Source of the DNA: a virus
UHGV virus genome: UHGV-0209292
Length of the DNA: 31,707 nt
Strand: one strand, 5' to 3'
In this document: positions 1 to 12,891 of the stretch, in pieces
Layout: the number at the start of each line of letters is the position of its first letter
Position numbering within the stretch: the first letter of the stretch is position 1
Translations under genes and position numbers: made by a program
Notes under the pieces: generated by a model
What the model was told of the DNA's origin: nothing
Seen by the model: only the letters and a program-made list of their open reading frames with translations
Database searches by the model: none

Positions 1-1770
1 ATGACCATTTCAACTGACCTTTCATTACTCAATGACCCACGACGACAGGCGCGGCTGTTGTACTGGCAGGGGTTCGCCGTGCCGCAAATCTGCGACATGC
101 TGCAACTCAAGCGCCCCACGGTGCAGAGCTGGAAACAGCGTGATGGATGGGAGGAAACCGCGCCGATTAACCGCGTTGAGTCGACGTTAGAGGCGCGTCT
201 CATCCAGCTTTACGCCAAGCCCGACCTGACGCCGCACGACTTTAAGGTCGCTGATTTTCTGTCGCGACAGATGGAGCGCCTCGCGCGCGTGAACCGCTAC
301 GGCCAGACCGGAAACGAGGTGGATTTAAACCCCAACATTGCCAGCCGCAACAAAGGGGATCGCAAAAAGCCGAAACGCAATTTCTTCAGTGAAGAAGCGA
401 TTGAAAAGCTGGAAGAGATTTTCTTTGACCAATCGTTTGAGTATCAGCTCAGGTGGCATAAAGCCGGGTTAGAGCACCGCATCCGCCACATCCTCAAATC
501 GCGCCAGATTGGCGCAACGTTCTACTTCGCGCGTGAGGCGCTTCTGCGCGCGCTTAAGACCGGGCAAAACCAGATTTTTTTATCCGCCAGTAAAACGCAG
601 GCTTACGTTTTCCGTAAGTACATCATCGCCTTTGCGCGTCTGGTCGACGTCGACCTGTCAGGCGACCCGATTGTCATCGGCAACAACGGCGCAGAGCTGA
701 TATTCCTCGGGACCAACTCCAACACCGCGCAGAGTCACAACGGCGACCTGTACGTCGATGAAATTTTCTGGATACCCAATTTCCAGAAGCTGCGAAAAGT
801 GGCCTCCGGTATGGCGTCGCAGTCGCACCTGCGCACAACCTATTTTTCGACGCCATCCACGCTGGCGCACGGCGCATACCCGTTCTGGTCAGGCGAGCTG
901 TTTAACCGTGGCCGCAGTAACCGCGACGAACGTGTCGACATCGATATCAGTCATCAGGCGCTTGCCGGGGGCATGTTATGCGGGGACGGCCAGTGGCGGC
1001 AGATTGTCACCATTGAGGACGCGCTCGCCGGGGGCTGTACCCTGTTTAACCTCGACCAGCTCAGACAGGAAAACAGCGCGGATGACTTCCGTAACCTGTT
1101 TATGTGCGAGTTCGTTGACGATAAAGCGTCGGTATTCCCGTTCGAAGAGCTCCAGCGTTGCATGGTCGATACGATGGAAGAATGGGAGGACTTCGAGCCA
1201 TTCGCTGACCGTCCGTTTAACTGGCGTCCGGTCTGGATTGGCTACGACCCGTCACACACCGGCGACAGCGCAGGCTGTGCGGTGCTGGCTCCGCCACTGG
1301 TTGCCGGTGGCAAGTTCCGCATCCTTGAGCGTCATCAGTGGAAAGGCATGGATTTTGCCGCGCAGGCCGAGGCCATCCGTGCGCTGACCGAGAAATACAC
1401 CGTCGACTATATCGGCATCGATGCGACCGGCATCGGCCAGGGTGTTTACCAGCTCGTGCGTTCATTCTTCCCGGCAGCGCGCGCTATCCGCTACACACCG
1501 GAAATGAAAACCGCAATGGTGCTGAAAGCGAAAGACACCATCCGACGCGGGTGTCTGGAGTATGACGCCGGTGCGACCGACATCACGCAGTCATTCATGG
1601 CTATCCGCAAAACCATGACCAGCAGCGGTCGCAGTGCCACCTATGAAGCCAGCCGCAGTGAGGAAGCCAGCCACGCGGATATCGCATGGGCGACCATGCA
1701 CGCCCTGTTAAACGAGCCACTTTCCGCCGGTAGCGGTATGCATTCAACCTCGATTCTGGATATCAATTAA
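1..1770 (+). CDS. P: Terminase large (ATPase) subunit, P2 gpP-like
   Basis: 589-aa ORF, first gene of the P-Q operon that ends at cos. Size and order match P2/186 gpP (about 590 aa). The stop (1768-1770) is followed one base later by the Q start. The window end supplies GAGG 7 nt upstream of this ATG. Confidence 0.85.
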   Translation: MTISTDLSLLNDPRRQARLLYWQGFAVPQICDMLQLKRPTVQSWKQRDGWEETAPINRVESTLEARLIQLYAKPDLTPHDFKVADFLSRQMERLARVNRYGQTGNEVDLNPNIASRNKGDRKKPKRNFFSEEAIEKLEEIFFDQSFEYQLRWHKAGLEHRIRHILKSRQIGATFYFAREALLRALKTGQNQIFLSASKTQAYVFRKYIIAFARLVDVDLSGDPIVIGNNGAELIFLGTNSNTAQSHNGDLYVDEIFWIPNFQKLRKVASGMASQSHLRTTYFSTPSTLAHGAYPFWSGELFNRGRSNRDERVDIDISHQALAGGMLCGDGQWRQIVTIEDALAGGCTLFNLDQLRQENSADDFRNLFMCEFVDDKASVFPFEELQRCMVDTMEEWEDFEPFADRPFNWRPVWIGYDPSHTGDSAGCAVLAPPLVAGGKFRILERHQWKGMDFAAQAEAIRALTEKYTVDYIGIDATGIGQGVYQLVRSFFPAARAIRYTPEMKTAMVLKAKDTIRRGCLEYDAGATDITQSFMAIRKTMTSSGRSATYEASRSEEASHADIAWATMHALLNEPLSAGSGMHSTSILDIN

Positions 1771-1771
1771 G

Positions 1772-2797
1772 ATGATAAAACGCCAAAAGAAACAGCCAAA
1801 ACAGACCAACATGACCGCCAGCGCACCGCAGAAAATGGAGGCGTTCACCTTTGGCGAGCCGTCACCCGTTCTGGATCGCCGCGATATCCTCGACTATGTC
1901 GAGTGCATCAATAACGGCAAATGGTACGAGCCGCCGGTCAACTTCTCCGGGCTGGCGAAAAGCCTGCGCGCCGCCGTGCATCACAGCTCCCCGATTTACG
2001 TGAAGCGTAACATCCTGACGAGCACCTACATCCCGCATCCGTTGCTTTCACGGCAGGATTTCAGCCGCCTTGTGCTCGATTATCTGGTTTTTGCTAACGG
2101 CTATCTTGAGAAGCGCATGAGCGTGACCGGCCAGCTCATGAAGCTTGAAACCTCTCCGGCCAAATACACCCGCCGGGGTGTCGAGGATGGGGTTTACTGG
2201 TACGTGTCGGACTTCACGCACCCGCACCAGTTCGCCCCCGGCTCAGTCTGTCATCTGCTTGAGCCCGACATCAATCAGGAGCTCTACGGGATGCCGGAAT
2301 ACCTTAGCGCGCTTAATTCAGCCTGGCTGAATGAATCCGCCACGCTGTTTCGTCGCAAGTATTACCAGAACGGCGCGCACGCGGGTTACATCATGTACGT
2401 CACCGACGCGGCGCAGAGCAGCACAGACGTCGAGGCGCTGCGCTCCGCGATGCGAGACTCGAAAGGGCTCGGGAATTTCAAAAACCTGTTTTTCTATGCC
2501 CCGAACGGGAAACCGGACGGCATCAAGATAGTGCCGCTGAGTGAAGTCGCCACAAAGGACGATTTTTTCAACATCAAAAAGGTGAGCGCCGCCGACCTGC
2601 TCGATGCGCACCGCGTACCGTTCCAGCTTATGGGCGGCAAGCCCGAGAATATCGGCTCAATGGGGGATATCGAGAAGGTGGCGCGAGTGTTTGTGCGTAA
2701 CGAACTGACGCCGTTGCAGGAGCGTTTCAAGGAAATCAATGAATGGCTCGGTTTAGAGGTGATCCGCTTTAAGGATTACAACATCGAAACTGAGTAA
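1772..2797 (+). CDS. Q: Portal (capsid vertex) protein, P2 gpQ-like
   Basis: 341-aa ORF immediately after P and immediately before the cos site, the same arrangement as P2 gpQ (about 344 aa). Confidence 0.85.
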   Translation: MIKRQKKQPKQTNMTASAPQKMEAFTFGEPSPVLDRRDILDYVECINNGKWYEPPVNFSGLAKSLRAAVHHSSPIYVKRNILTSTYIPHPLLSRQDFSRLVLDYLVFANGYLEKRMSVTGQLMKLETSPAKYTRRGVEDGVYWYVSDFTHPHQFAPGSVCHLLEPDINQELYGMPEYLSALNSAWLNESATLFRRKYYQNGAHAGYIMYVTDAAQSSTDVEALRSAMRDSKGLGNFKNLFFYAPNGKPDGIKIVPLSEVATKDDFFNIKKVSAADLLDAHRVPFQLMGGKPENIGSMGDIEKVARVFVRNELTPLQERFKEINEWLGLEVIRFKDYNIETE

Positions 2798-2810
2798 CCC
2801 CCGCCTAAAT

Positions 2811-2826
2811 GCCGCCTCCGGGCGGC
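2811..2826 (+). terminator. GC-rich hairpin GCCGCC-TCCG-GGCGGC just after the Q stop; no U-tract
   Basis: Perfect 6-bp stem with a 4-nt loop 14 nt after the Q stop. No following T-run, so at best a weak or factor-dependent terminator, or an RNA-stability element. Confidence 0.3.
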
Positions 2827-2963
2827 ATCCTCTCAGAGCGAGCCAGACGCCGCACACGCGGCGCAACCACGCCAGCACCTCGTTAACCGACCGCACATAA
2901 CAGCGCGCCACCACGACGCGCACAGACGCGTAAAATAAATCCTGTCACCACATCTGGCGCGCA

Positions 2964-2982
2964 GTGCTATCCCCGCCTCGCC
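2964..2982. other. cos: cos cohesive-end site (P2/186 type)
   Basis: The + strand reads GTGCTATCCCCGCCTCGCC, whose reverse complement is GGCGAGGCGGGGATAGCAC. That is an 18/19 match to the P2 19-nt cohesive end GGCGAGGCGGGGAAAGCAC as I remember it. It lies directly downstream of Q, as in P2. Confidence 0.7.
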
Positions 2983-3114
2983 TGCCCGCTTGATGGGTCG
3001 GTTTTAATGCAATTGCACCAAGATGATGAATTGGTATCAGCCCTGGCTTTAGATACAGTCTACATACCTTTCAGACACATGCATATTCATGCACCCAGTA
3101 GATGCACGTCTAAA

Positions 3115-3930
3115 TTATTTGTTAAGACCTCGTAATTTCCCCATAAGTCCCTTCGACTTCTGCTCTTTATCCTCTTCTGATTTAAAAACAGAGTAGGTAT
3201 CAAAATCGAAAAAGGAAATGTTCTCAATCTCTGCCTTTGGTATTAGAACCCTAAAATCAGATAGTTCAAGATCAGATTTCCCGTTCAAAATCCCTGATTT
3301 TTCATAGTGTTCATTGTATTTTGTTGTGATGGTTATGGTCAGTTTATCCTTGTCACGATAACCACTCAGAAGGGGAAGCAGCTCAAGGTAGTCAAATGTC
3401 CCATGCTCAAAAGCCGGGCAAAAAACGAAACCGACATAAAATTTGCGTGATTTCAAAGTGGCAATAATTGGCATTTGAGTCGCGGATGCTTCCATAAGCA
3501 TATTCTCAAGCGCGTTATCTCCTACTGCTTTCACTAACGCATCAATCCTTCGATTAGCGTTTTTTAGCCAAAGCTTTTTTAATCCTCCAACAGTGTATGC
3601 CATCGCTAATGACATCAAACCACATAAGGCGAATTTTAGATCTCTGAAACGAGTGGCATCTTCTGCACTAAGTGGGAAAACTCGGCTGATGACATTACTG
3701 TCTGCACCAAAGAATTCGATTGCTCCGTTGACACCCCACCTTAAAAACCCAGTAATGCTTAGGAAAGAGCAAATCGCCCAGGATAAGGTGACGAAAAAGG
3801 TTCCCCATGCCGCAACTAAAAAATAAGCGTCCCAGCCCGTGGAACGCTTAAATTGATATCGGTCTGATAGAGACCTGATCACGTAGACATAACCACTGAT
3901 CAGGATAACCACTAAAAGCAAAGTATTCAT
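3115..3930 (-). CDS. Hypothetical membrane protein, 271 aa (accessory cargo): 2-3 N-terminal TM helices plus a soluble domain of about 150 aa
   Basis: Long ORF in strongly AT-rich DNA (about 37% GC by eye, against a 55-60% backbone). Hydrophobic stretches LLLVVILISGYVYVI, YFLVAAWGTFFVTLSWAICSFLSITGFL and LKFALCGLMSLAMAYTVGGL. Its start ATG overlaps the stop of the upstream 72-aa ORF (ATGA at 3927-3930). Confidence 0.7.
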   Translation of the reverse strand: MNTLLLVVILISGYVYVIRSLSDRYQFKRSTGWDAYFLVAAWGTFFVTLSWAICSFLSITGFLRWGVNGAIEFFGADSNVISRVFPLSAEDATRFRDLKFALCGLMSLAMAYTVGGLKKLWLKNANRRIDALVKAVGDNALENMLMEASATQMPIIATLKSRKFYVGFVFCPAFEHGTFDYLELLPLLSGYRDKDKLTITITTKYNEHYEKSGILNGKSDLELSDFRVLIPKAEIENISFFDFDTYSVFKSEEDKEQKSKGLMGKLRGLNK

Positions 3931-4145
3931 TTAGCTGAGGTCTTGGTTACCAGAAGTGCAATACTTTCAAGCTTATCCAGTTGCTTGACAATCTCTGCCT
4001 GTACATCTTCATTATCAAGGTTCATATTGATAAACCCATCATTGTTGATGTTAAAGCGATTTTTGTTTTTCTTCAGCACCCTGGACAGCCGATCCTGTGG
4101 ACTGCGTGCCGCCAGACTCTGCTTAAGCGCTAATGAAATGGACAT
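3927..4145 (-). CDS. Hypothetical 72-aa protein, first gene of the two-gene AT-rich cassette
   Basis: Very strong RBS GGAAGGAGGAAATT immediately 5' of the ATG on the - strand. A 4-nt ATGA overlap with the downstream 271-aa gene implies translational coupling. Charged and hydrophilic, no TM segment. Confidence 0.6.
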   Translation of the reverse strand: MSISLALKQSLAARSPQDRLSRVLKKNKNRFNINNDGFINMNLDNEDVQAEIVKQLDKLESIALLVTKTSAK

Positions 4146-4412
4146 AATTTCCTCCTTCCATCAAGATGGCGCAGAAGTATACGCATGTGTAGATGTTCCT
4201 TCAACTTATACTTCTATGACACATTTATCGGCAGTTTGTTGCCTTTTTTTAATTTAAATTAAGCTGAGTCGGCGATTTTGTGCAAGTCCCAAAGCTGAGA
4301 TCTGCTCGCTCTGTAACGCTCTCATGCACGCCTCAACCAAAGGAATACTCCTTAGATAAGAGTATCGAAACCAAGCCATTTTAGAAGGTTAATGTTACCA
4401 AAACGAGATATT

Positions 4413-4443
4413 GCCGAACCGAAAAACCAGTTTTCGGTTCGGC
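4413..4443 (-). terminator. Perfect 13-bp hairpin (GCCGAACCGAAAA / TTTTCGGTTCGGC) 10 nt downstream of the tum stop
   Basis: Inverted repeat seen directly. On the - strand it is followed by AATATCTCGTTTTGG, a weak U-tract. It could also insulate the downstream cassette. Confidence 0.45.
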
Positions 4444-4455
4444 AAAGCTCACTAA

Positions 4456-4896
4456 CTAATGCCAGCTCTCGTCTTCCCACACTTCCTTGATGATTCCGTC
4501 CAAACGTTCACGGTCTGATTCGCTCGGGAAGCCTTTTATCTCAACGCCAGTCATTGAGCCTTTTTTGACCGTAATTCGTGAGGAAGGAAATGTGCGTTTA
4601 ACTCTGCGATTAAGCTCACTTTCGAAGGCCTCAACCAGCTGTTGTCCCATGTTTTGTGCTTTATCCAACGTGATGTGTATTCTCACTTCATTTTCTCTTT
4701 TTAATCGTTGTTTACATGGTCTGGCGGAGACAACCACAGAATAAGAATCACGTTTCAGCAAGTTTTCATGCGCTAGCTCAGCTATTAAATTCAATGCAAT
4801 TTCACGATCCCTTTCCTGACATACACCCTCAGTTGTCAGACGGGCTATCAGCTCGACTCTTTCAAGCATGACATGCTCGCTCAGTTCTCTATCCAC
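4456..4896 (-). CDS. tum: Tum-like SOS-inducible antirepressor; C-terminal half is a DinI-fold domain
   Basis: 146 aa, the length I recall for 186 Tum. Residues about 70-146 (VRIHITLDKAQNMGQQLVEAFESELNRRVKRTFP...ERLDGIIKEVWEDESWH) align convincingly with E. coli DinI (MRIEVTIAK...LAGELSRRIQYAFPD...QRISEILQETWESADDWF). GTG start with a strong SD (AAGGGGAGG, 5-nt spacer). A LexA box lies in its promoter. The gene sits between A and the cos-proximal cargo, as tum does in 186. Confidence 0.75.
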   Translation of the reverse strand: MDRELSEHVMLERVELIARLTTEGVCQERDREIALNLIAELAHENLLKRDSYSVVVSARPCKQRLKRENEVRIHITLDKAQNMGQQLVEAFESELNRRVKRTFPSSRITVKKGSMTGVEIKGFPSESDRERLDGIIKEVWEDESWH

Positions 4897-4915
4897 ACAA
4901 CCTCCCCTTACGAGA

Positions 4916-4959
4916 TACTGTATAAATAAACAGTATAATGAAGTGATAAAAAATGTGAA
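4916..4959 (-). promoter_or_regulatory. LexA (SOS) operator TACTGTATAAATAAACAGTA overlapping a sigma70-like promoter for tum (-35 TTCACA, 16 nt, -10 TATACT)
   Basis: A perfect CTGT-N8-ACAG palindrome with the flanking TA at 4916-4935. On the - strand TTCACA (complement of 4954-4959) and TATACT (complement of 4932-4937) are spaced 16 nt apart. The box covers the -10 and the start region. Confidence 0.75.
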
Positions 4960-5018
4960 GAAAAAAATCTGATAGTCTAAATCCGTATGTACATGAAATG
5001 GATGTGATTTAGTTACGG

Positions 5019-7289
5019 TTACAACTTACTTCCAGCCGCTAACCTTGCCACGCGGCTAAGAATTTTTTTGGCTCGCTCCTGATTAGATGGCGCAGCCCTA
5101 AAAACTTCACCACTAGATGACCCTCTGCACCATTTACCACCAAATCGACTTTTTCCTCCCGCCATAAGATGCAGAGCCTCGCCCCGACTGATAGTTATGC
5201 CGGTGCTAATCTGGATTTCTTCTATTGTCCTGGCAACCGCGCCCCCCTGCTCGTCAGTTCCATGGACAAATCCACGTCTGGCGACCGGTTTTTTCACCCT
5301 GAGTCGGTTTGTTAATGACCGCTTTTCACTTCGGCTTAACGGTTTTGATAAATCCGGTTCAGGGGGATCGCTTTCGCTCCCCGTACAGTTATTGACAGAA
5401 CTCCGAGAGGGCGCAGGAGCGCCCTTAACGTCAACGGCCAAATCAACGGCACGCTTCGGCACAATTTTCCACTGCGTTAGCCGGGTTAAAATCGGGGTAC
5501 CAGCACCGACAGCGGAATCGTAAACGCCACGGATGCAGACGGTTTTCTCGCCATACTGATTAAAGTCGGCGCGCGGTTCATACAGCGTGCGCACCTGCAA
5601 ATCATCGCGACGGACAAACGGTCCACCCTGCATATTAACGTAACCAGCCCAGTCACCGGCGTCAGCGGCATCATGAACGGCGGCAAATTCAACGCTCAGA
5701 CCGTGCGCGGTCTCGGTATCGGCGAGACGACGCAATTCACGGTAGACCGTCACCGGCGCACCGCCGATAAACTGAAACTGACGGATGTGCCAGCGCGCCG
5801 CCCATGCTGATACAGCGGGGGCTGTCTCTTTCAGCAGCTCACCGCTTTCGTCATCGGTTTCACCATCAAGAGCATAGCCGTCGATATTTTTTGAAATGTA
5901 TTTAGCAACATAGCCGGTAGCGCTGCCTTTTTCCGGGTCAATGGCCTCGGCATGGAAGCGCGCTTTTTTGGCTTTATCGCTTCTCAGTTCGTTGCGGTCT
6001 TCCTCCCACGCATAATCACGAATGATGAGGCGCACGCGCTCGACGTCTTCCGGCAACATGAACATAAGCATGTGCCAGTGCGGCGTCCCGTCGTGATGAG
6101 GCTCGGCAACACGTATGCCAAAAATGCGGATTTCTTCCCGGTGCAGCTTGGCGCGAATGCGCGCCCAAAGGCCGGTGAGATAGCTCTGCGTGTCCGACGG
6201 GCTGGCACCGTTCCATTTGCTGTTACGGTATCCCGCTTTAGTCGTGGCGTGATATTTAGACGGTGCAGTCAGGGTGTAAAACTCCCCGACGTATCCGAGC
6301 TCATTGCAGATATTTTCAAACCCACGGATGCGGGTCATCAGCTCGCAGCGACGTATCGCTGGGTTGGCGACCGAGCCATCATATTTGTCAATCAGGCTGA
6401 TGCGGTTGCCGTCTTCGTCTTCGAGATCCAGCCCCTTGAGAAATTCGCGCGTGCGGCGCTTCTGCTCGCGCCAGTCAGTCACGCAGTTTTTACTCGCGTA
6501 GGCGTGTCGTTTCTTGCTGACGTTGCCGACTGCAATTTGCAGGTGTTCGCGCCATGCTGCCGCAGTGCGTCGCAAGCGACCACGCCACCAAACCTCATTA
6601 AACATGCGTGTTATAGCAGGGGCGATTTCATCCTCACTGGCATATTTCTTTGTCACCCGCTCCCAATGCGGCGGGGTAACGTTGAATTGCAGGGAAATGA
6701 AACCGGCTCGCATGTACCAGGTGTACAGCGTTTTGAGCTCGCTAAATCCGGTGTCATCAATGTCGGCCAGTTCAGCACGAATAAAATTTGCTATATCAGC
6801 GGCCAAAAGGTCGATATCGGCGCGCGACATATCAGGGAGACTGTTATATCTGGCAACCATATTGACCATGCGTGACGCCAAATACTGCATAAGCTCGGTA
6901 TCAAAATGACCGCCAAAAACAGCAGCTGATACGTTGCTTTTGATACCTGCACACTCGTATTTTTTTGCGACCAGCTCAAGACGTGGCAATGCCTTTTTGC
7001 AGAAGCTGATTAAAAAGGCATTGGCTCGTTGACTGCCCTGATTTTGCTCCAGCACCGCAGCGGTGCGATAAACGTCAAAGCGCACGCACTCGGGCTGGAG
7101 AGAAAGCACTTTTCTCGCATGCAGCAAAGCCGCGAACATACGATCGCGGCGTTGTTGTTGGTCATAAGTCAGGTATGGGCTTGCTATTGCCTGTTTTGGA
7201 AAATTCCATACAAAGGCATAATCAATCTCACCCGTAGCCTTTGCTGAGACAGGAGTGTCTATGACTTTATTCACTGAAGAAGATCCCAC
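5019..7289 (-). CDS. A: Replication initiator protein A (rolling-circle HUH endonuclease, P2 gpA-like)
   Basis: 756 aa (P2 A about 761). HUH motif EPHHDGTPHWHMLMF and the catalytic Tyr pair in GYVAKYISKNIDGYALDG, as in P2 A and phiX174 A. Apparent GTG start at 7289. Confidence 0.9.
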   Translation of the reverse strand: MGSSSVNKVIDTPVSAKATGEIDYAFVWNFPKQAIASPYLTYDQQQRRDRMFAALLHARKVLSLQPECVRFDVYRTAAVLEQNQGSQRANAFLISFCKKALPRLELVAKKYECAGIKSNVSAAVFGGHFDTELMQYLASRMVNMVARYNSLPDMSRADIDLLAADIANFIRAELADIDDTGFSELKTLYTWYMRAGFISLQFNVTPPHWERVTKKYASEDEIAPAITRMFNEVWWRGRLRRTAAAWREHLQIAVGNVSKKRHAYASKNCVTDWREQKRRTREFLKGLDLEDEDGNRISLIDKYDGSVANPAIRRCELMTRIRGFENICNELGYVGEFYTLTAPSKYHATTKAGYRNSKWNGASPSDTQSYLTGLWARIRAKLHREEIRIFGIRVAEPHHDGTPHWHMLMFMLPEDVERVRLIIRDYAWEEDRNELRSDKAKKARFHAEAIDPEKGSATGYVAKYISKNIDGYALDGETDDESGELLKETAPAVSAWAARWHIRQFQFIGGAPVTVYRELRRLADTETAHGLSVEFAAVHDAADAGDWAGYVNMQGGPFVRRDDLQVRTLYEPRADFNQYGEKTVCIRGVYDSAVGAGTPILTRLTQWKIVPKRAVDLAVDVKGAPAPSRSSVNNCTGSESDPPEPDLSKPLSRSEKRSLTNRLRVKKPVARRGFVHGTDEQGGAVARTIEEIQISTGITISRGEALHLMAGGKSRFGGKWCRGSSSGEVFRAAPSNQERAKKILSRVARLAAGSKL

Positions 7290-7854
7290 CCAAAGCCGCT
7301 ATGTTGATTTGATTACAGAGGTGACGGCTTTCGAAGCTACGAAAGAACCAATGAAGATCATTTCCGCATCCGACATGCTCGGCATTTGCGATGCTTTTCT
7401 TGCTGACACTCAATGCCACATAGCAGACCGGCTACCTCTTTCAATAGCTGGTCGGCGTGAGCTAGGTCGGAAAATTGAGTGGAATTGTCCACATAGCTGG
7501 AAACCACGCGAAGAATGGTCAACACATGTTCGGCACGCCTTACAAATTTTAAATCGACGTTATTTGGATACCCCAGTATCTCCACAGGATGACTGGCAGA
7601 CCTGGGAAGAACTATCGACAGATATTCATGTGTCGGCTCGCTGTGTTCGGCAGACTGTTGAGTTTTATCGCTCTGGAAATCCCCAGCATTTACCGATGTC
7701 GACTGAGCTTTTTGCTGTTCCCGAAGTTTTTTCAAAATTTGTAGCTTCGATTCTTTCGGGTGACATTCATCCTGTTTGGATGTGGCATGCTGACGCAGCC
7801 AAAACGCCGAAATGCTTTGATGGGCTTTATCCCAAATACACGCCGCTTTCTTAA
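7261..7854 (+). CDS. Alternative hypothetical 197-aa protein on the opposite strand of the same low-GC insert (candidate 2 of 2)
   Basis: Strong SD (AGGAG, 5-nt spacer) before the ATG at 7261. Globular-looking composition (W/C/H-containing, mixed hydrophobic and charged). It would overlap the first 29 nt of A and converge on the early operon. Only one of the two ORFs is likely to be real. Confidence 0.3.
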   Translation: MTLFTEEDPTQSRYVDLITEVTAFEATKEPMKIISASDMLGICDAFLADTQCHIADRLPLSIAGRRELGRKIEWNCPHSWKPREEWSTHVRHALQILNRRYLDTPVSPQDDWQTWEELSTDIHVSARCVRQTVEFYRSGNPQHLPMSTELFAVPEVFSKFVASILSGDIHPVWMWHADAAKTPKCFDGLYPKYTPLS

Positions 7855-7879
7855 GCTGGCTTAGTGGCCGGGTAGTCAT
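7358..7879 (-). CDS. Hypothetical 173-aa protein in the low-GC insert between the TraR-like gene and A (candidate 1 of 2 mutually exclusive ORFs)
   Basis: Co-oriented with the early operon. Its ATG overlaps the stop of the TraR-like gene (ATGA at 7876-7879) and is preceded by GGGGGG. The sequence is Q/S/K-rich with three rare Arg codons (CGA, CGG, CGG) at the 3' end, so it could be the antisense shadow of the + strand ORF. Confidence 0.4.
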   Translation of the reverse strand: MTTRPLSQLKKAACIWDKAHQSISAFWLRQHATSKQDECHPKESKLQILKKLREQQKAQSTSVNAGDFQSDKTQQSAEHSEPTHEYLSIVLPRSASHPVEILGYPNNVDLKFVRRAEHVLTILRVVSSYVDNSTQFSDLAHADQLLKEVAGLLCGIECQQEKHRKCRACRMRK

Positions 7880-8100
7880 ATCGCCCCCCGATAGTGTTTT
7901 AATTTAAGTTCGACAATTTGCTGGCAGGTTACGCAAGAGGCCACACCCGGAATCGCAATGCGGCGAGCTTCCGGGATTGGTGCGTCACATTCTTCGCAGA
8001 GAAAACGGGAAGGTGCAGCGATACGGCTACGCGCGTTGCTGATGTGGCGCTCGCGGTCTTCCTGCTCGCGCAGTTGTGCTAAATCCATTGCGTCGGCCAT
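7876..8100 (-). CDS. TraR/DksA-family C4 zinc-finger protein (P2 orf82-like)
   Basis: 74 aa with CEEC-x17-CVTC (two Cys pairs 17 residues apart), the typical phage TraR-like layout. It sits within the early operon upstream of A, as in P2 and 186. Confidence 0.75.
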   Translation of the reverse strand: MADAMDLAQLREQEDRERHISNARSRIAAPSRFLCEECDAPIPEARRIAIPGVASCVTCQQIVELKLKHYRGAI

Positions 8101-8327
8101 TAGTGCAGCTCCTGTGATTCATTCTCAAAGCGAGTGGCTTCACGGCGCAGCAGTTCGGCGGCTTCGATACCGCTCATCCCCTCTTTGGTGATATGTATCG
8201 CCAGTGCCTCAAGGCGGATGGAAACAGCGAGCGCGCGGTCTTTACGTTCTTCTTTTTTGGCATCGGTCAGCAATACGGTCAGCGCATCGCTATCTGTATT
8301 AAAACTACGGGTTACGATATTACGCAT
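8100..8327 (-). CDS. Hypothetical early protein, 75 aa
   Basis: Strong RBS (AGGAGAATAAT before the ATG). Its stop overlaps the start of the TraR-like gene. Conserved small early orf position of P2/186. Confidence 0.6.
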   Translation of the reverse strand: MRNIVTRSFNTDSDALTVLLTDAKKEERKDRALAVSIRLEALAIHITKEGMSGIEAAELLRREATRFENESQELH

Positions 8328-8394
8328 AATTTATTCTCCTGATTTCGGGCAATAAGAAGCCCGGCGGGTTTACGCCATTAAATTTCTGTTTGGA

Positions 8395-8733
8395 TTAATT
8401 CGGCATGGTTAGCCGTTTGGGAAATAAACTCACCACTGCACGAAAATGATTCATCGCTGTAATAAGCGCCTTTTTCTCGTCAGTAGTCAGCTCACTTAAT
8501 TCGAGCTCATGACGAGCCGCAGGGATTTTTGCCAGAAAGAAAATAGCGGCCAGCGCCCGATTATTTTCTTCAAATTGTGGGTCACGTTTATCGCGCATAT
8601 CATCGACAAAACGTTCAACCTCTTTCCAGCTATCGCCCCAATATCTCGCGCGCAATTCAGCCACATGATTGAGACCGGTCAGACGTTCACCCGCTTTTAG
8701 CGGAACAGTCGCGGAAACAGCTTCGATAGCCAT
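8395..8733 (-). CDS. Hypothetical early protein, 112 aa (186 dhr-position)
   Basis: ORF in the early operon between the cII-proximal small orf and the 75-aa orf. The function call is positional only. Confidence 0.5.
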   Translation of the reverse strand: MAIEAVSATVPLKAGERLTGLNHVAELRARYWGDSWKEVERFVDDMRDKRDPQFEENNRALAAIFFLAKIPAARHELELSELTTDEKKALITAMNHFRAVVSLFPKRLTMPN

Positions 8734-9841: not shown

Positions 9842-10417
9842 TTGATACTCGATACTCAGGTGAATAACGACGAGTTACTGGATAGAATTTGTCAAGTATA
9901 TGGTTTTACTCAAAAAATCCAGCTAGCCCGGCACTTCAATATTGCCGCCAGCTCCCTACAAAACCGCTACACACGAGGCACTGTTTCTTATGATTTCGCC
10001 GTGCAGTGCGCACTAGAAACTGGAGCAAGCCTACTATGGCTTCTTACGGGGGAAGGCTCTCAATATGATGGCAAACCGTCCCCAAAGGATCCGAAAATGA
10101 TAGATACCTTCACTCTGAGTGATGGAAAGCTCGAAGAAAATTCACCATTGAGTATTGATGCCGGTTTTTTTAGCAAGCAAATGTCAAAAGGTATTGCTGT
10201 TCGCGCCGATGGAAAGCTGCACTTCATAGAACAAGATGCCTCACTTTCTGATGGCCTTTGGTTGGTTGATATTGAGGGAGCTACCAGCATCAGAGAATTG
10301 ACGCTCCTACCTGGCAAAAAGTTACACGTTGCGGGCGGCAAAGTACCATTTGAGTGCGGGATAGATGAGATAAAAACGATTGGCCGTGTAGTGGGTGTAT
10401 ACAGCGAGGTTAATTGA
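9842..10417 (+). CDS. cI: CI immunity repressor (186 CI type, about 190 aa)
   Basis: 191-aa ORF in the correct position and orientation, co-transcribed with int. Size matches 186 CI (192 aa) and is far longer than P2 C (99 aa). N-terminal helix-rich and C-terminal beta-rich organisation. The start (TTG at 9842 with AAGGA upstream, or GTG at 9860) is uncertain. Confidence 0.75.
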   Translation: MILDTQVNNDELLDRICQVYGFTQKIQLARHFNIAASSLQNRYTRGTVSYDFAVQCALETGASLLWLLTGEGSQYDGKPSPKDPKMIDTFTLSDGKLEENSPLSIDAGFFSKQMSKGIAVRADGKLHFIEQDASLSDGLWLVDIEGATSIRELTLLPGKKLHVAGGKVPFECGIDEIKTIGRVVGVYSEVN

Positions 10418-11418
10418 TGACTGTCCGTAAAAATCCGGCTGGAGGTTGGATTTGTGAGCTCTACCCAAACGGAGCAAAAGGCAAACGTATCAGAAAAAAA
10501 TTCGCTACTAAGGGCGAGGCTCTGGCGTTTGAGCAGTACACCGTTCAAAACCCGTGGCAGGAAGAAAAGGAAGACAGACGGACTCTAAAAGACCTAATCG
10601 ACTCATGGTATAGCGCTCACGGTATTACCCTTAAAGACGGTCTCAAACGCCAGTTAGCGATGCATCATGCTTTTGAGTGTATGGGCGAACCGCTTGCACG
10701 CGATTTCGATGCGCAGATGTTTTCCCGCTACCGTGAAAAGAGGCTAAAGGGTGAATATGCCCGTTCAAACAGGGTTAAAGAAGTATCGCCCCGCACGCTT
10801 AATCTTGAGTTAGCCTATTTTCGCGCGGTATTCAATGAGCTAAACCGCCTCGGTGAATGGAAAGGCGAAAACCCGCTAAAAAATATGCGCCCTTTCCGCA
10901 CAGAAGAAATGGAAATGGCCTGGCTAACTCACGACCAAATTTCACAACTGCTCGGAGAGTGCAAACGGCATGACCACCCTGATTTAGAAAGTGTGGTCAG
11001 AATCTGCCTAGCAACTGGTGCACGGTGGTCTGAAGCCGAGAGCATGAAAAAAAGCCAGCTAGCGAAATACAAAATCACATACACTAACACGAAAGGCAGA
11101 AAAAACCGCACCGTTCCAATCAGTAAAGAGCTCTATGAGTTTCTGCCTTATGAAAAAAAGGGTCGGTTATTTAGTGATTGTTATGGCGCGTTCCGATCTG
11201 CTCTGGAAAGAACAGGCATCGAACTACCGGCAGGACAACTTACCCACGTTTTGCGCCACACCTTCGCCAGCCACTTTATGATGAATGGCGGTAACATTCT
11301 GGTCTTGCAGCGCGTGCTCGGCCATACCGACATCAAAATGACGATGCGGTATGCGCATTTTGCTCCAGACCACTTAGAAGACGCTGTTAAACTTAATCCA
11401 TTAAATACATTTAGTTAA
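10417..11418 (+). CDS. int: Tyrosine integrase (P2/186 family)
   Basis: 333 aa. The ATG overlaps the cI stop (TGATGA). C-terminal catalytic region HVLRHTFASHFMMNGGNILVLQRVLGHTDIKMTMRYAHF carries the R..HxxR..Y signature. Confidence 0.9.
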   Translation: MTVRKNPAGGWICELYPNGAKGKRIRKKFATKGEALAFEQYTVQNPWQEEKEDRRTLKDLIDSWYSAHGITLKDGLKRQLAMHHAFECMGEPLARDFDAQMFSRYREKRLKGEYARSNRVKEVSPRTLNLELAYFRAVFNELNRLGEWKGENPLKNMRPFRTEEMEMAWLTHDQISQLLGECKRHDHPDLESVVRICLATGARWSEAESMKKSQLAKYKITYTNTKGRKNRTVPISKELYEFLPYEKKGRLFSDCYGAFRSALERTGIELPAGQLTHVLRHTFASHFMMNGGNILVLQRVLGHTDIKMTMRYAHFAPDHLEDAVKLNPLNTFS

Positions 11419-11427
11419 TCTAATTTA

Positions 11428-12891
11428 TTATTTATTGTTCATTTCTCGTAAATCTTGCTCCCAATGGGTATCGTTGGACTCAACAATACCCTCTCTTTCC
11501 AAGAGCATCATTCTCTTCAAAAGATATTTTTGGCTCATACCTCTTAGGTAATACCTAACAGTTTCGGCAAAATCCCAATTATCATCTGAAAACAGTCTTG
11601 GCTGGAATGAATGGCAATATACAATTTCAATATCCTTACCCTCGCAATCAAAATTAGCTAACATATTAGTAATTTTCTCATCACGAAGCACTTCTACATG
11701 TGGGCCATGTAATGTTTCATATCCAATATGAATAACTGTTTTACCATCATCTGGCGCTTGCCTCACAGCTTTTACAAGCAATCCCTTAACATCTTTAGCT
11801 TTTTTTGCAATCGACTCATCTGCTATACATTCCCATTTAGCGCAGAAAGGTCTCTTTATTTCGTCTGCAAAAACGTTAATTGTACTATATTCATCATCGC
11901 TATAAGTACAAAGTTTAGCTTGGCAGGCCATTGTATAACTACCATGGGGTTCATAGTTATCATCTAAAAGAGAGTTAAGCTGTGGCGAAGGATATTTTAC
12001 TATCCATTTAGCGAAATGTTTATTTACTCGATCCATATCAATTAAATTTGCCACCACTGATATTTCATTATTTTCACATGATGCAATGCCGCATTGCATT
12101 AAATCTCGCGATGCGTATAAACACCTAACAACATTCAAAAAAATATCAGGATGGGTACTATTGACCTCACATTTGAACTTTACATTGAAAAAAACAGGAT
12201 ATGGATAAGAAATCATGTAAGGTAGAGCTTGCTGCCATCTTTTAACCCATTCCGTTCGTTCATTTTCTGAATATTGAGTTACCTTTGCAAGCCTTTTACA
12301 TTCGACATATAGTTTATCATTTTCTTTCTTCACAAGAAGGTCTGGAGTTTTACCTGCACCGGACTCAGGTAAAAACTCTACTTCCCAGCCATTTTTTATA
12401 TAACAGGCAGCAACAACCAATTCAAATAATACCGAGTCTGGTTGATTCTCAGGTTTAACAAGTAAATCTTTAAGCTTATTTTCAATACCTTTGGTACACT
12501 TCAACTCTTCGCTAAATTCCCCGATTGTAGCAAAAAACGGCCAAATTCTAGAGGATTGCGCAGGTTCATCAACTGTTGGGCGATCTGCAAGTGATTCTGC
12601 AAGGTATAAATACCAAGCGATCCAATCTTCATAAAAAGCCATGCGAGAATCTTTTTCATGAAAAGAAACATCAGTTTGGCTGTTATATAACCGTTCAGTG
12701 AGAGAGCGAAAATATCTTAGAACATTATCTCTTCGCTCAAACCACTTTTCTTGCCCCATGACTTCAACAAACCATCGATATGTTTTCTTTACGTCTTTGA
12801 CGAGAGGGTCGTCGTGTCTCGCATTAAAATGCTTCCAAAATTCAGCATACTCATCTTCAGTAGCATTTTTATCATGGCTATTTTCGCTCAC
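11428..12891 (-). CDS. Hypothetical 487-aa protein with a PD-(D/E)xK nuclease motif; AT-rich cargo between int and attP
   Basis: About 33-35% GC by eye. Motif FELVVAACYIKNGWEVEF...GKTPDLLVKKENDKLYVECKRLAK gives E ... PD ... ExK in canonical spacing. GTG start with an AAGGA SD. Convergent with int, with a 9-nt gap. Confidence 0.7.
   Translation of the reverse strand: MSENSHDKNATEDEYAEFWKHFNARHDDPLVKDVKKTYRWFVEVMGQEKWFERRDNVLRYFRSLTERLYNSQTDVSFHEKDSRMAFYEDWIAWYLYLAESLADRPTVDEPAQSSRIWPFFATIGEFSEELKCTKGIENKLKDLLVKPENQPDSVLFELVVAACYIKNGWEVEFLPESGAGKTPDLLVKKENDKLYVECKRLAKVTQYSENERTEWVKRWQQALPYMISYPYPVFFNVKFKCEVNSTHPDIFLNVVRCLYASRDLMQCGIASCENNEISVVANLIDMDRVNKHFAKWIVKYPSPQLNSLLDDNYEPHGSYTMACQAKLCTYSDDEYSTINVFADEIKRPFCAKWECIADESIAKKAKDVKGLLVKAVRQAPDDGKTVIHIGYETLHGPHVEVLRDEKITNMLANFDCEGKDIEIVYCHSFQPRLFSDDNWDFAETVRYYLRGMSQKYLLKRMMLLEREGIVESNDTHWEQDLREMNNK

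Follow-up and report, generated by a model that had tools for sequence, protein, structure and literature searches.

What is the role of two AT-rich genes that lie next to cos at positions 3115 to 4455 of the virus genome UHGV-0209292, and why should a P2/186-like phage carry them? We examined this question within a window that comprises the whole 31,707-nucleotide (nt) stretch of UHGV-0209292, a circularly permuted P2/186-like phage genome whose first 7.2 kb are ~96% identical to a prophage of Enterobacter hormaechei CP064656. The two genes, which encode a 72-amino-acid (aa) basic protein and a 271-aa membrane protein, form a self-contained cassette that is optional cargo of the P2/186-like prophage hotspot. 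Our favored reading, to which we assign a probability of roughly one in three, is that they encode an inner-membrane anti-phage module, i.e., a sensor/effector complex serving the lysogen. An initial annotation, made from the sequence alone, had proposed the locus as a candidate novel defense or abortive-infection (Abi) module. Part of that interpretation stands, supported by the hotspot, the pairing of the two genes, the defense genes found beside related pairs, and a published DefensePredictor score for a homologue, while its appeal to a toxin-antitoxin (TA) or Abi layout and its use of the word "novel" fare less well, as discussed below.

The edge of the cassette is marked by a sudden loss of similarity to related phages. 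Homology between the window and 107 P2-like phage records ends at position 3011. The nearest relative, Enterobacter phage ENT4, is 97.1% identical over positions 1 to 3011 and diverges completely beyond them; its slot before the replication gene A (gpA) is filled by the gene for a single 742-aa AAA_13 protein (6499 to 8727 of locus L048), which matches the PADLOC model PDC-S06 (E = 7e-256) and, more weakly, PrrC. We place the junction between cos-proximal backbone and cargo at positions 3012 to 3114, directly past the point where ENT4 and the other P2-like phages cease to be similar. No close DNA relative of the cassette itself was found in the phage collection or among the E. coli genomes. 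These results bear out the earlier proposal of horizontally acquired accessory cargo, and a comparison of the slot across relatives, which had been set as a check, found it to be variable rather than a core, invariant one: the slot turns over between near-identical phages, and other P2-like loci combine the pair with different neighbors.

Base composition tells a similar story, with some correction of the earlier figures. The cassette interval is indeed low in GC, at 41.2% rather than the 37% estimated by eye, a value approached (37.3%) by one 300-nt segment only; the large gene is at 40.9%, the small gene at 42.5%, and the spacer upstream at 41.0%. The backbone lies at 53 to 57% rather than 55 to 60% (whole window, 53.3%; terL plus portal gene, 56.5%). 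The low-GC block runs from ~3000 to ~5100 and takes in tum (44.9%) in addition to the cassette, with positions 3000 to 5018 at 41% GC against the 53 to 57% of the backbone.

The proximity of the cassette to cos and the packaging genes raises the question of whether it assists the lytic cycle, either through holin-like control of lysis timing or as a helper of packaging or injection. The transmembrane (TM) region of the large protein does have a weak match to a holin family (phrog_2073, E = 0.011). Nonetheless, the cassette is missing from ENT4, with its 97% identical terL-portal-cos backbone, and from most other P2-like phages; it lies outside the lysis cassette, the pair also occurs outside phages, and it has a candidate promoter of its own and a strong terminator that would insulate it from the SOS-induced tum transcript. 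We therefore regard a lytic role as very improbable.

From left to right, the locus consists of terL (1 to 1770, plus strand), the portal gene (1772 to 2797, plus strand), cos-proximal noncoding backbone, the cassette (minus strand), the gene for a tum/DinI-like antirepressor (4456 to 4896, minus strand), and gpA (5019 to 7289, minus strand). This order places the cassette between replication gene A and portal gene Q, adjoining cos, at the gpA-gpQ site, which Rousset et al. 2022 defined, validated for defense, and showed to store anti-phage systems in the P2-like phages of E. coli (PMC9122126); gene order and the published definition together uphold its earlier assignment to the P2-like anti-phage hotspot. 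In other P2 hotspots the pair adjoins known defense genes, including bSEFIR (loci L002 and L016; E = 7e-103 and 6e-114), and further neighbors comprise a PDC-M55C/HEC-05-like protein (L017), a DndB/DpdB-like protein (L015), and a TIR protein (L056), as well as PIN_12, DUF262/DUF1524, and SieB in the loci of Table S5A of Rousset 2022. Rst_2TM_1TM_TIR of phage AC1 was considered as a possible identity, given that it shares the hotspot and the presence of TM proteins with the pair and that TIR or bSEFIR genes adjoin the pair in some E. coli and Klebsiella loci. It was rejected: its three proteins, of 126, 186, and 314 aa (the last of them the TIR protein; Table S2 of Rousset 2022), differ in size from those of the pair and are unlike them in sequence when compared by reading, the window holds no TIR gene, and the TIR genes that adjoin the pair elsewhere belong to bSEFIR or to separate systems.

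Both genes of the cassette are encoded on the minus strand. The small gene (3927 to 4145; PHROG 9843), whose product is a basic, soluble partner, precedes the large gene (3115 to 3930; PHROG 3630), whose product is an inner-membrane protein, and the stop codon of the former overlaps the start of the latter in an ATGA at 3927 to 3930. A Shine-Dalgarno sequence, AGGAGG (4151 to 4156, minus strand; cctcct on the plus strand), stands 5 nt before the ATG of the small gene at 4145 and is conserved across homologous loci. The two open reading frames (ORFs), their overlap, and this ribosome-binding site had all been reported in the initial annotation and were confirmed, the latter two by direct reading of the sequence.

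The linkage of the two genes extends well beyond this phage. In every evaluable genome locus (L005 to L037), a small ORF of ~60 to 90 aa was found directly upstream of the large-protein homologue, its end lying no more than ~20 nt from the large-gene start in nearly all of them. The pairing reaches Pseudomonas, Vibrio, Photobacterium, Paludibacterium, the cyanobacterium Nodosilinea, and a metagenome-assembled genome of Binatia. Relatives are encoded by 129 viral contigs in IMG/VR, and the small gene is directly upstream in 78 of the best 80. Across 231 pairwise comparisons, identity between small proteins rises and falls with identity between the corresponding large proteins (Pearson r = 0.82). 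Partial exceptions are L030, where the small gene lies ~170 nt upstream, and L019 (Erwinia mallotivora, positions 1 to 253), where it is truncated by the apparent end of an insertion sequence (IS) transposase gene and the large gene is intact; frameshifts interrupt the large gene in L018, L025, and L027, from Symbiopectobacterium and Enterovibrio. We conclude that the two genes are an obligate pair, forming one conserved, tightly linked unit. A DUF6338 gene of Pseudomonas stutzeri, Pstu14405_12030, echoes this arrangement: a proteogenomics study reported that it shares an operon with the genes for three small proteins, all newly detected and well expressed (PMC10433244).

The region upstream of the small gene suggests that the pair is also autonomous in its expression. 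A candidate sigma-70 promoter at 4176 to 4204 (minus strand) consists of the -35 hexamer TTGAAG (4204 to 4199), a 17-nt spacer, and the -10 hexamer TATACT (4181 to 4176). A scan with the sigma-70 consensus is by itself at chance level, and the support for this promoter is its conservation in an alignment of the spacers from the window, two E. coli loci, a Klebsiella phage, Citrobacter, Pectobacterium, and a contig labeled Martelella. The alignment retains the -35/-10 pair, the palindrome AATTTAAATT (AACTTAAGTT in relatives), and the ribosome-binding site, and both hexamers hold their positions in the E. coli, Klebsiella-phage, Citrobacter, and Pectobacterium loci. Since the proteins of these loci are only ~50 to 67% identical and the upstream elements are nevertheless conserved, we infer that the cassette brings its own promoter, from which it would be expressed in the prophage. 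The palindrome (4251 to 4260) lies upstream of the promoter and may be an operator or an UP-like element. A small inverted repeat (GGCA-N6-TGCC) accompanies it within 4230 to 4260, just upstream of the -35 hexamer, and palindrome and repeat may together form an operator; the E. coli loci likewise have a small inverted repeat at about this place.

On the far side of this spacer, the hairpin previously noted between the cassette and tum was recovered at 4411 to 4445, as opposed to 4413 to 4443. Read on the minus strand, it has a folding energy of -25.9 kcal/mol (z = -5.55), with none of 200 shuffled sequences folding as well, and its 15-bp stem followed by a T-rich tail leads us to identify it as the intrinsic terminator of tum. 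This terminator would shield the cassette from transcription of tum, which is under LexA control. No terminator-like structure was detected after the large gene (3012 to 3114 region; folding z = -0.05). Measured against the usual description of a moron, the cassette thus shows presence/absence variation, deviating GC content, and a conserved promoter, with no downstream terminator found.

A small gene upstream of a larger one, translational coupling, and a conserved palindrome upstream of the promoter that could be an autoregulatory operator are also what one might expect of a TA-like addiction module, in which a toxic membrane protein is neutralized by the small protein and the prophage is stabilized without any phage-specific role. 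The strict pairing and co-divergence of both proteins fit such a module, as does a stranded copy that persists after prophage decay in Pectobacterium (see below). However, the small protein has no recognizable DNA-binding or antitoxin fold, and searches of Pfam, NCBIfam, and PADLOC matched no TA family, so that neither protein can be placed among type II TA systems. Furthermore, the Erwinia locus keeps its large gene with a truncated small gene, which is not what one would expect of a gene for a lethal toxin. We consider addiction improbable, and with no antitoxin or DNA-binding fold and no PADLOC match, the argument that the gene layout is typical of TA and Abi systems is a weak one.

The large protein matches phrog_3630 over residues 1 to 260 (E = 5.8e-78), annotated in PHROGs as "unknown function," and neither Pfam nor NCBIfam nor PADLOC has a match to it. 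When 1.84 billion representative proteins were searched with a profile, 2,962 clusters (50% identity) passed E <= 1e-3, of which 2,176 also passed E <= 1e-10; nearly all of the best 150 listed relatives are 240 to 300 aa long and matched over their whole length. Hydropathy, the positive-inside rule, and an AlphaFold2 (AF2) model (predicted local distance difference test [pLDDT], 78; predicted template modeling score, 0.58) agree on three TM-length helices and a C-terminal domain of ~150 aa, which settles on three the earlier count of two to three N-terminal TM helices and supports the domain size given with it. In the model, TM helices at residues 2 to 19, 33 to 60, and 92 to 121 are followed by two linker helices, a beta-rich domain at 155 to 240, and a C-terminal helix. 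Judged by its distribution of charges, the protein has a predicted N-out/C-in topology, which would put the domain on the cytoplasmic side, and the region from ~140 to 240 is predicted to be an Sm-like beta-barrel, followed by the C-terminal helix. Conservation, followed down to ~22% identity, is strongest in TM1-loop-TM2 (G13, G32, Y36, and G43) and in polar residues of the barrel (K163, Y165, S189, G190, Y191, R192, and Y205); conserved motifs are RKFYVG (162 to 167) and LPLLSGYRDKD (185 to 195).

A profile search of the PDB returned chance TM matches only. The nearest named comparisons for the barrel are Sm/LSm proteins, i.e., LSm5 (PDB 3pgg_B) and archaeal SmAP (PDB 1loj), where membership in the superfamily is defined by the Sm fold, the Sm1/Sm2 sequence motifs, and ring oligomerization. 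The combination of TM helices with an Sm-like domain brings MscS to mind, and this identity was rejected, there being no match to the Pfam MS_channel family and no MscS chain noticed among the structural matches listed. A holin was likewise rejected, given that the phrog_2073 match is weak and confined to the TM region and that the cassette is not part of the lysis module.

A more distant relationship was found to DUF6338, which was matched by 9 of 117 family representatives. One of these, P0177, scored above the Pfam PF19865 cutoff (30.8 versus 26.5 bits) with a match over the TM region; the window protein itself has no DUF6338 match in Pfam at E <= 1. A published HHblits comparison aligned residues 131 to 240 of an E. 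coli homologue with positions 120 to 211, in the C-terminal half of DUF6338, at 94.3% probability (PMC13092281). Since the P0177 match and the HHblits match together span the full length, the family appears to be a divergent branch, and a remote relative, of the DUF6338 superfamily. The initial annotation, which recognized no family, was thus nearly right, short of this remote relationship. Pfam describes DUF6338 as uncharacterized integral membrane proteins, so that membership is silent on mechanism.

The small protein has an isoelectric point of 9.8, lacks a TM segment, and matches phrog_9843 (E = 1.3e-18), again annotated as "unknown function." Its predicted structure runs helix, helix, beta-hairpin, long helix (pLDDT 70), and the small proteins of the family have in common the core motif (I/V)-x-x-D-G-x-(V/I)-S-(L/I)-(N/D)-L, with a helix after it. 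The model matched no ribbon-helix-helix, helix-turn-helix, or AbrB fold.

The distribution of the cassette is that of a moron. Among the best 80 IMG/VR contigs, 56 are P2-like with the pair in the gpA-gpQ hotspot, and no P2 marker gene is seen close to the pair in the other 24. P2-like carriers further include Salmonella phages SEN4 and SEN5, Klebsiella phage ST15-OXA48phi14.1, and several E. coli prophages. The pair also occurs within the tail-gene operons of unrelated prophages of siphoviral type. In a lambda-like prophage of E. hormaechei (6775 to 7801 of L138/L139), it is inserted between tail genes K (JAB/NlpC-P60) and I/J; in a siphoviral-type prophage of Aeromonas caviae (L042 to L044), it stands immediately upstream of the tape-measure gene, a slot that we take to be that of the HK97 gp15 exclusion moron. 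The pair adjoins int/attP in Cronobacter phage phiES15 and lies at the genome end in Pseudomonas phages vB_Pae_U5 and U6. A three-gene remnant in Pectobacterium (7372 to 8819 of L045 to L047) consists of the DinI-like gene and the pair without other P2 genes, flanked by a mechanosensitive-channel gene upstream and by a major facilitator superfamily transporter gene or biosynthetic genes on the other side, which suggests that the cassette was kept after decay of the prophage. Solitary pairs between housekeeping genes were found in Vibrio, Erwinia, and Nodosilinea. Finally, distant homologues of the pair (23 to 27% identity) occupy the same chromosomal site in four Pseudomonas species (L033, L034, L036, and L037), immediately behind a 651-aa ORF. 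In L033, this ORF encodes an NADH:flavin oxidoreductase, and an outer membrane protein beta-barrel gene follows the pair.

Several of these insertion sites (before the tape-measure gene, in the lambda-like tail operon, and beside int/attP) match those of classical exclusion morons, such that the pair might act in superinfection exclusion, blocking DNA entry or an early membrane step without killing the cell. P22 SieA, HK97 gp15, and lambdoid Cor are models for such a role, named here for comparison without implying homology. An inner-membrane protein made by a prophage would be well placed for exclusion, its TM1-loop-TM2 region is strongly conserved, and the pair co-occurs with SieB in E. coli hotspots. 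On the other hand, no PADLOC, Pfam, or PHROG link connects known superinfection exclusion proteins to the pair, solitary chromosomal copies occur in nonprophage contexts, and the strictly conserved cytoplasmic domain, polar pocket, and obligatory soluble partner are more typical of a sensing/effector complex. We therefore think exclusion unlikely.

The chromosomal copies also invite a different explanation, namely, that the pair has a nondefense membrane function of the lysogen or host, such as envelope stress response, transport, or signaling, and is either conversion cargo or a pair of host genes that phages have acquired. The very large size of the family and its uniform protein length (2,962 clusters at 50% identity), the fixed locus in the four Pseudomonas species, and the solitary copies in Vibrio, Erwinia, and Nodosilinea are all compatible with this explanation. 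Such a function is harder to reconcile with the patchy occurrence of the pair, its repeated presence in prophage moron slots of four or more types, and its turnover between near-identical phages. At >=80% coverage, the variant of the pair from E. coli (L053) is present in only 52 of the 5,426 complete genomes of that species, copies are pseudogenized or IS disrupted in some lineages, and the DefensePredictor score of an E. coli homologue lies above the strict cutoff. A nondefense role is possible in our view, if rather doubtful.

Neither the family nor the idea that it serves in defense is without precedent. Among 169 curated P2-hotspot systems, Rousset 2022 includes two homologous entries, #43 (93 occurrences) and #57 (75 occurrences, with a small partner), both without a Pfam domain and described as "2 TM" (Table S5B of PMC9122126). 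In our hhalign comparisons against the family profile, systems #43 and #57 scored 100% and 99.6% probability. They resemble the window cassette in their homologous large proteins and gpA-gpQ location, and #57 has a homologous-looking small partner; they differ in belonging to other subfamilies (~25 to 31% identity to the window protein) and in coming from E. coli rather than Enterobacter. E. coli WP_000094764 + WP_000212611 is grouped with them in this comparison. DefensePredictor (2026), an independent machine-learning study, lists the E. coli homologue WP_000212611.1 as a "Predicted novel defense gene" with a mean log-odds of 5.10 (PMC13092281 Table S5), where the strict cutoff is a log-odds of 4 (PMC13092281). 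The family is therefore already catalogued in this hotspot and computationally predicted to be defensive, and the description "novel" fits its architecture, which is unusual and without a characterized relative, rather than its discovery, given PHROGs 3630 and 9843, the two Rousset systems, and the DefensePredictor call. Literature searches turned up no experiments on either the family or DUF6338, and main texts yielded nothing for phrog_3630, for the protein accessions, or for "Sm-like" combined with defense.

A number of observations weigh against a defense role. A PADLOC search, which had been proposed as a check and was run with PADLOC-DB 2.0.0 on both proteins, the homologous proteins of L002 and L056, and 117 family representatives, gave no meaningful match and thus identified no known defense system: the large protein had 0 matches, the small protein had a chance-level Cas2 match only (E = 0.01), and 2 of the 117 family proteins gave stray subthreshold matches (an amino-acid transporter model and pAgo). 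The structural model of the small protein had no informative fold match. Hotspot residence is itself no guarantee, since these loci also hold partition systems (~1/4) and cytolethal distending toxin (~2%), and defense was seen for only 3 of the 8 further P2 systems that were assayed (PMC9122126); the presence of such nondefense cargo lends weight to the explanation from a lysogen or host function. Similarly, DefensePredictor validated 42 of 94 cloned units (PMC13092281). The family is absent both from the tested constructs of PMC9122126 Table S2 and from the cloned units of PMC13092281 Table S6. Lastly, the shared chromosomal locus in Pseudomonas also fits a housekeeping membrane role.

If the pair is nonetheless an anti-phage module, its predicted structure suggests how it might work. 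The large protein would be anchored in the inner membrane by its three TM helices. Sm-like domains typically form rings, so the cytoplasmic Sm-like barrel would be expected to oligomerize the large protein into one. The polar pocket of the barrel (K163, Y165, S189, Y191, R192, and Y205) could sense a ligand or protein derived from infection, upon which the TM bundle, with its unusually conserved TM1-loop-TM2, might compromise the membrane or block a membrane step. The small basic protein, as an obligatory partner, would act as regulator or sensor, either restraining the complex or delivering the signal to it. Comparable designs among prophage-encoded systems include lambda RexAB, HK97 gp15, and gp30/31 of mycobacteriophage Sbash, which are prophage expressed, occupy moron positions, and combine a membrane protein with a soluble partner or act by exclusion. 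They differ from the pair in TM number and domain content, and no homology was detected through PADLOC, which presumably includes RexAB and Abi models.

We also considered a broader and more speculative version of this model, in which the DUF6338-related family and its small partner represent a widespread, unrecognized class of membrane-embedded immune device. An Sm-like ring would sense a nucleotide, nucleic acid, or phage protein and gate a pore formed by TM1-TM2-TM3, in an MscS-resembling architecture for abortive infection that would be spread as a temperate-phage moron from Enterobacterales to cyanobacteria. We think it unlikely that this generalization holds. Should the pair prove protective, a function would be assigned to a "dark" family of ~3,000 clusters at 50% identity from many phyla with a remote link to DUF6338, and a membrane-anchored Sm-like domain with a ~70-aa partner would constitute a new defense architecture without a characterized relative. 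It would also explain a recurrent item of P2-like, lambda-like, and other prophage moron slots, and it could affect host range in phage therapy of the clinical species E. hormaechei. Should it prove not to be protective, the cassette would be a reminder that cargo of a defense hotspot is not automatically defensive.

Two further features of the window concern its backbone and other cargo. The 146-aa product of the tum/DinI-like gene, which lies outside the cassette, matches Pfam DinI (E = 7.7e-16) and PHROG 189 (E = 5.7e-61). A near-consensus LexA box, TACTGTATAAATAAACAGTA (CTGT-N8-ACAG), stands before this gene at 4916 to 4935 and overlaps its promoter-like site (4932 to 4959, minus strand), in support of SOS-controlled induction like that of phage 186. 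Directly beside the integrase gene (10414 to 11418) lies another AT-rich cargo gene (11428 to 12891, minus strand; 487 aa, 36.7% GC). It has no Pfam or PADLOC match and no homology to the PIN_12 gene that flanks this prophage in related genome records, at the end distal to int in L049 and next to int in L051. The 487-aa gene is another cargo candidate, in an att-proximal slot that we take to be equivalent to the fun/Z slot of P2.

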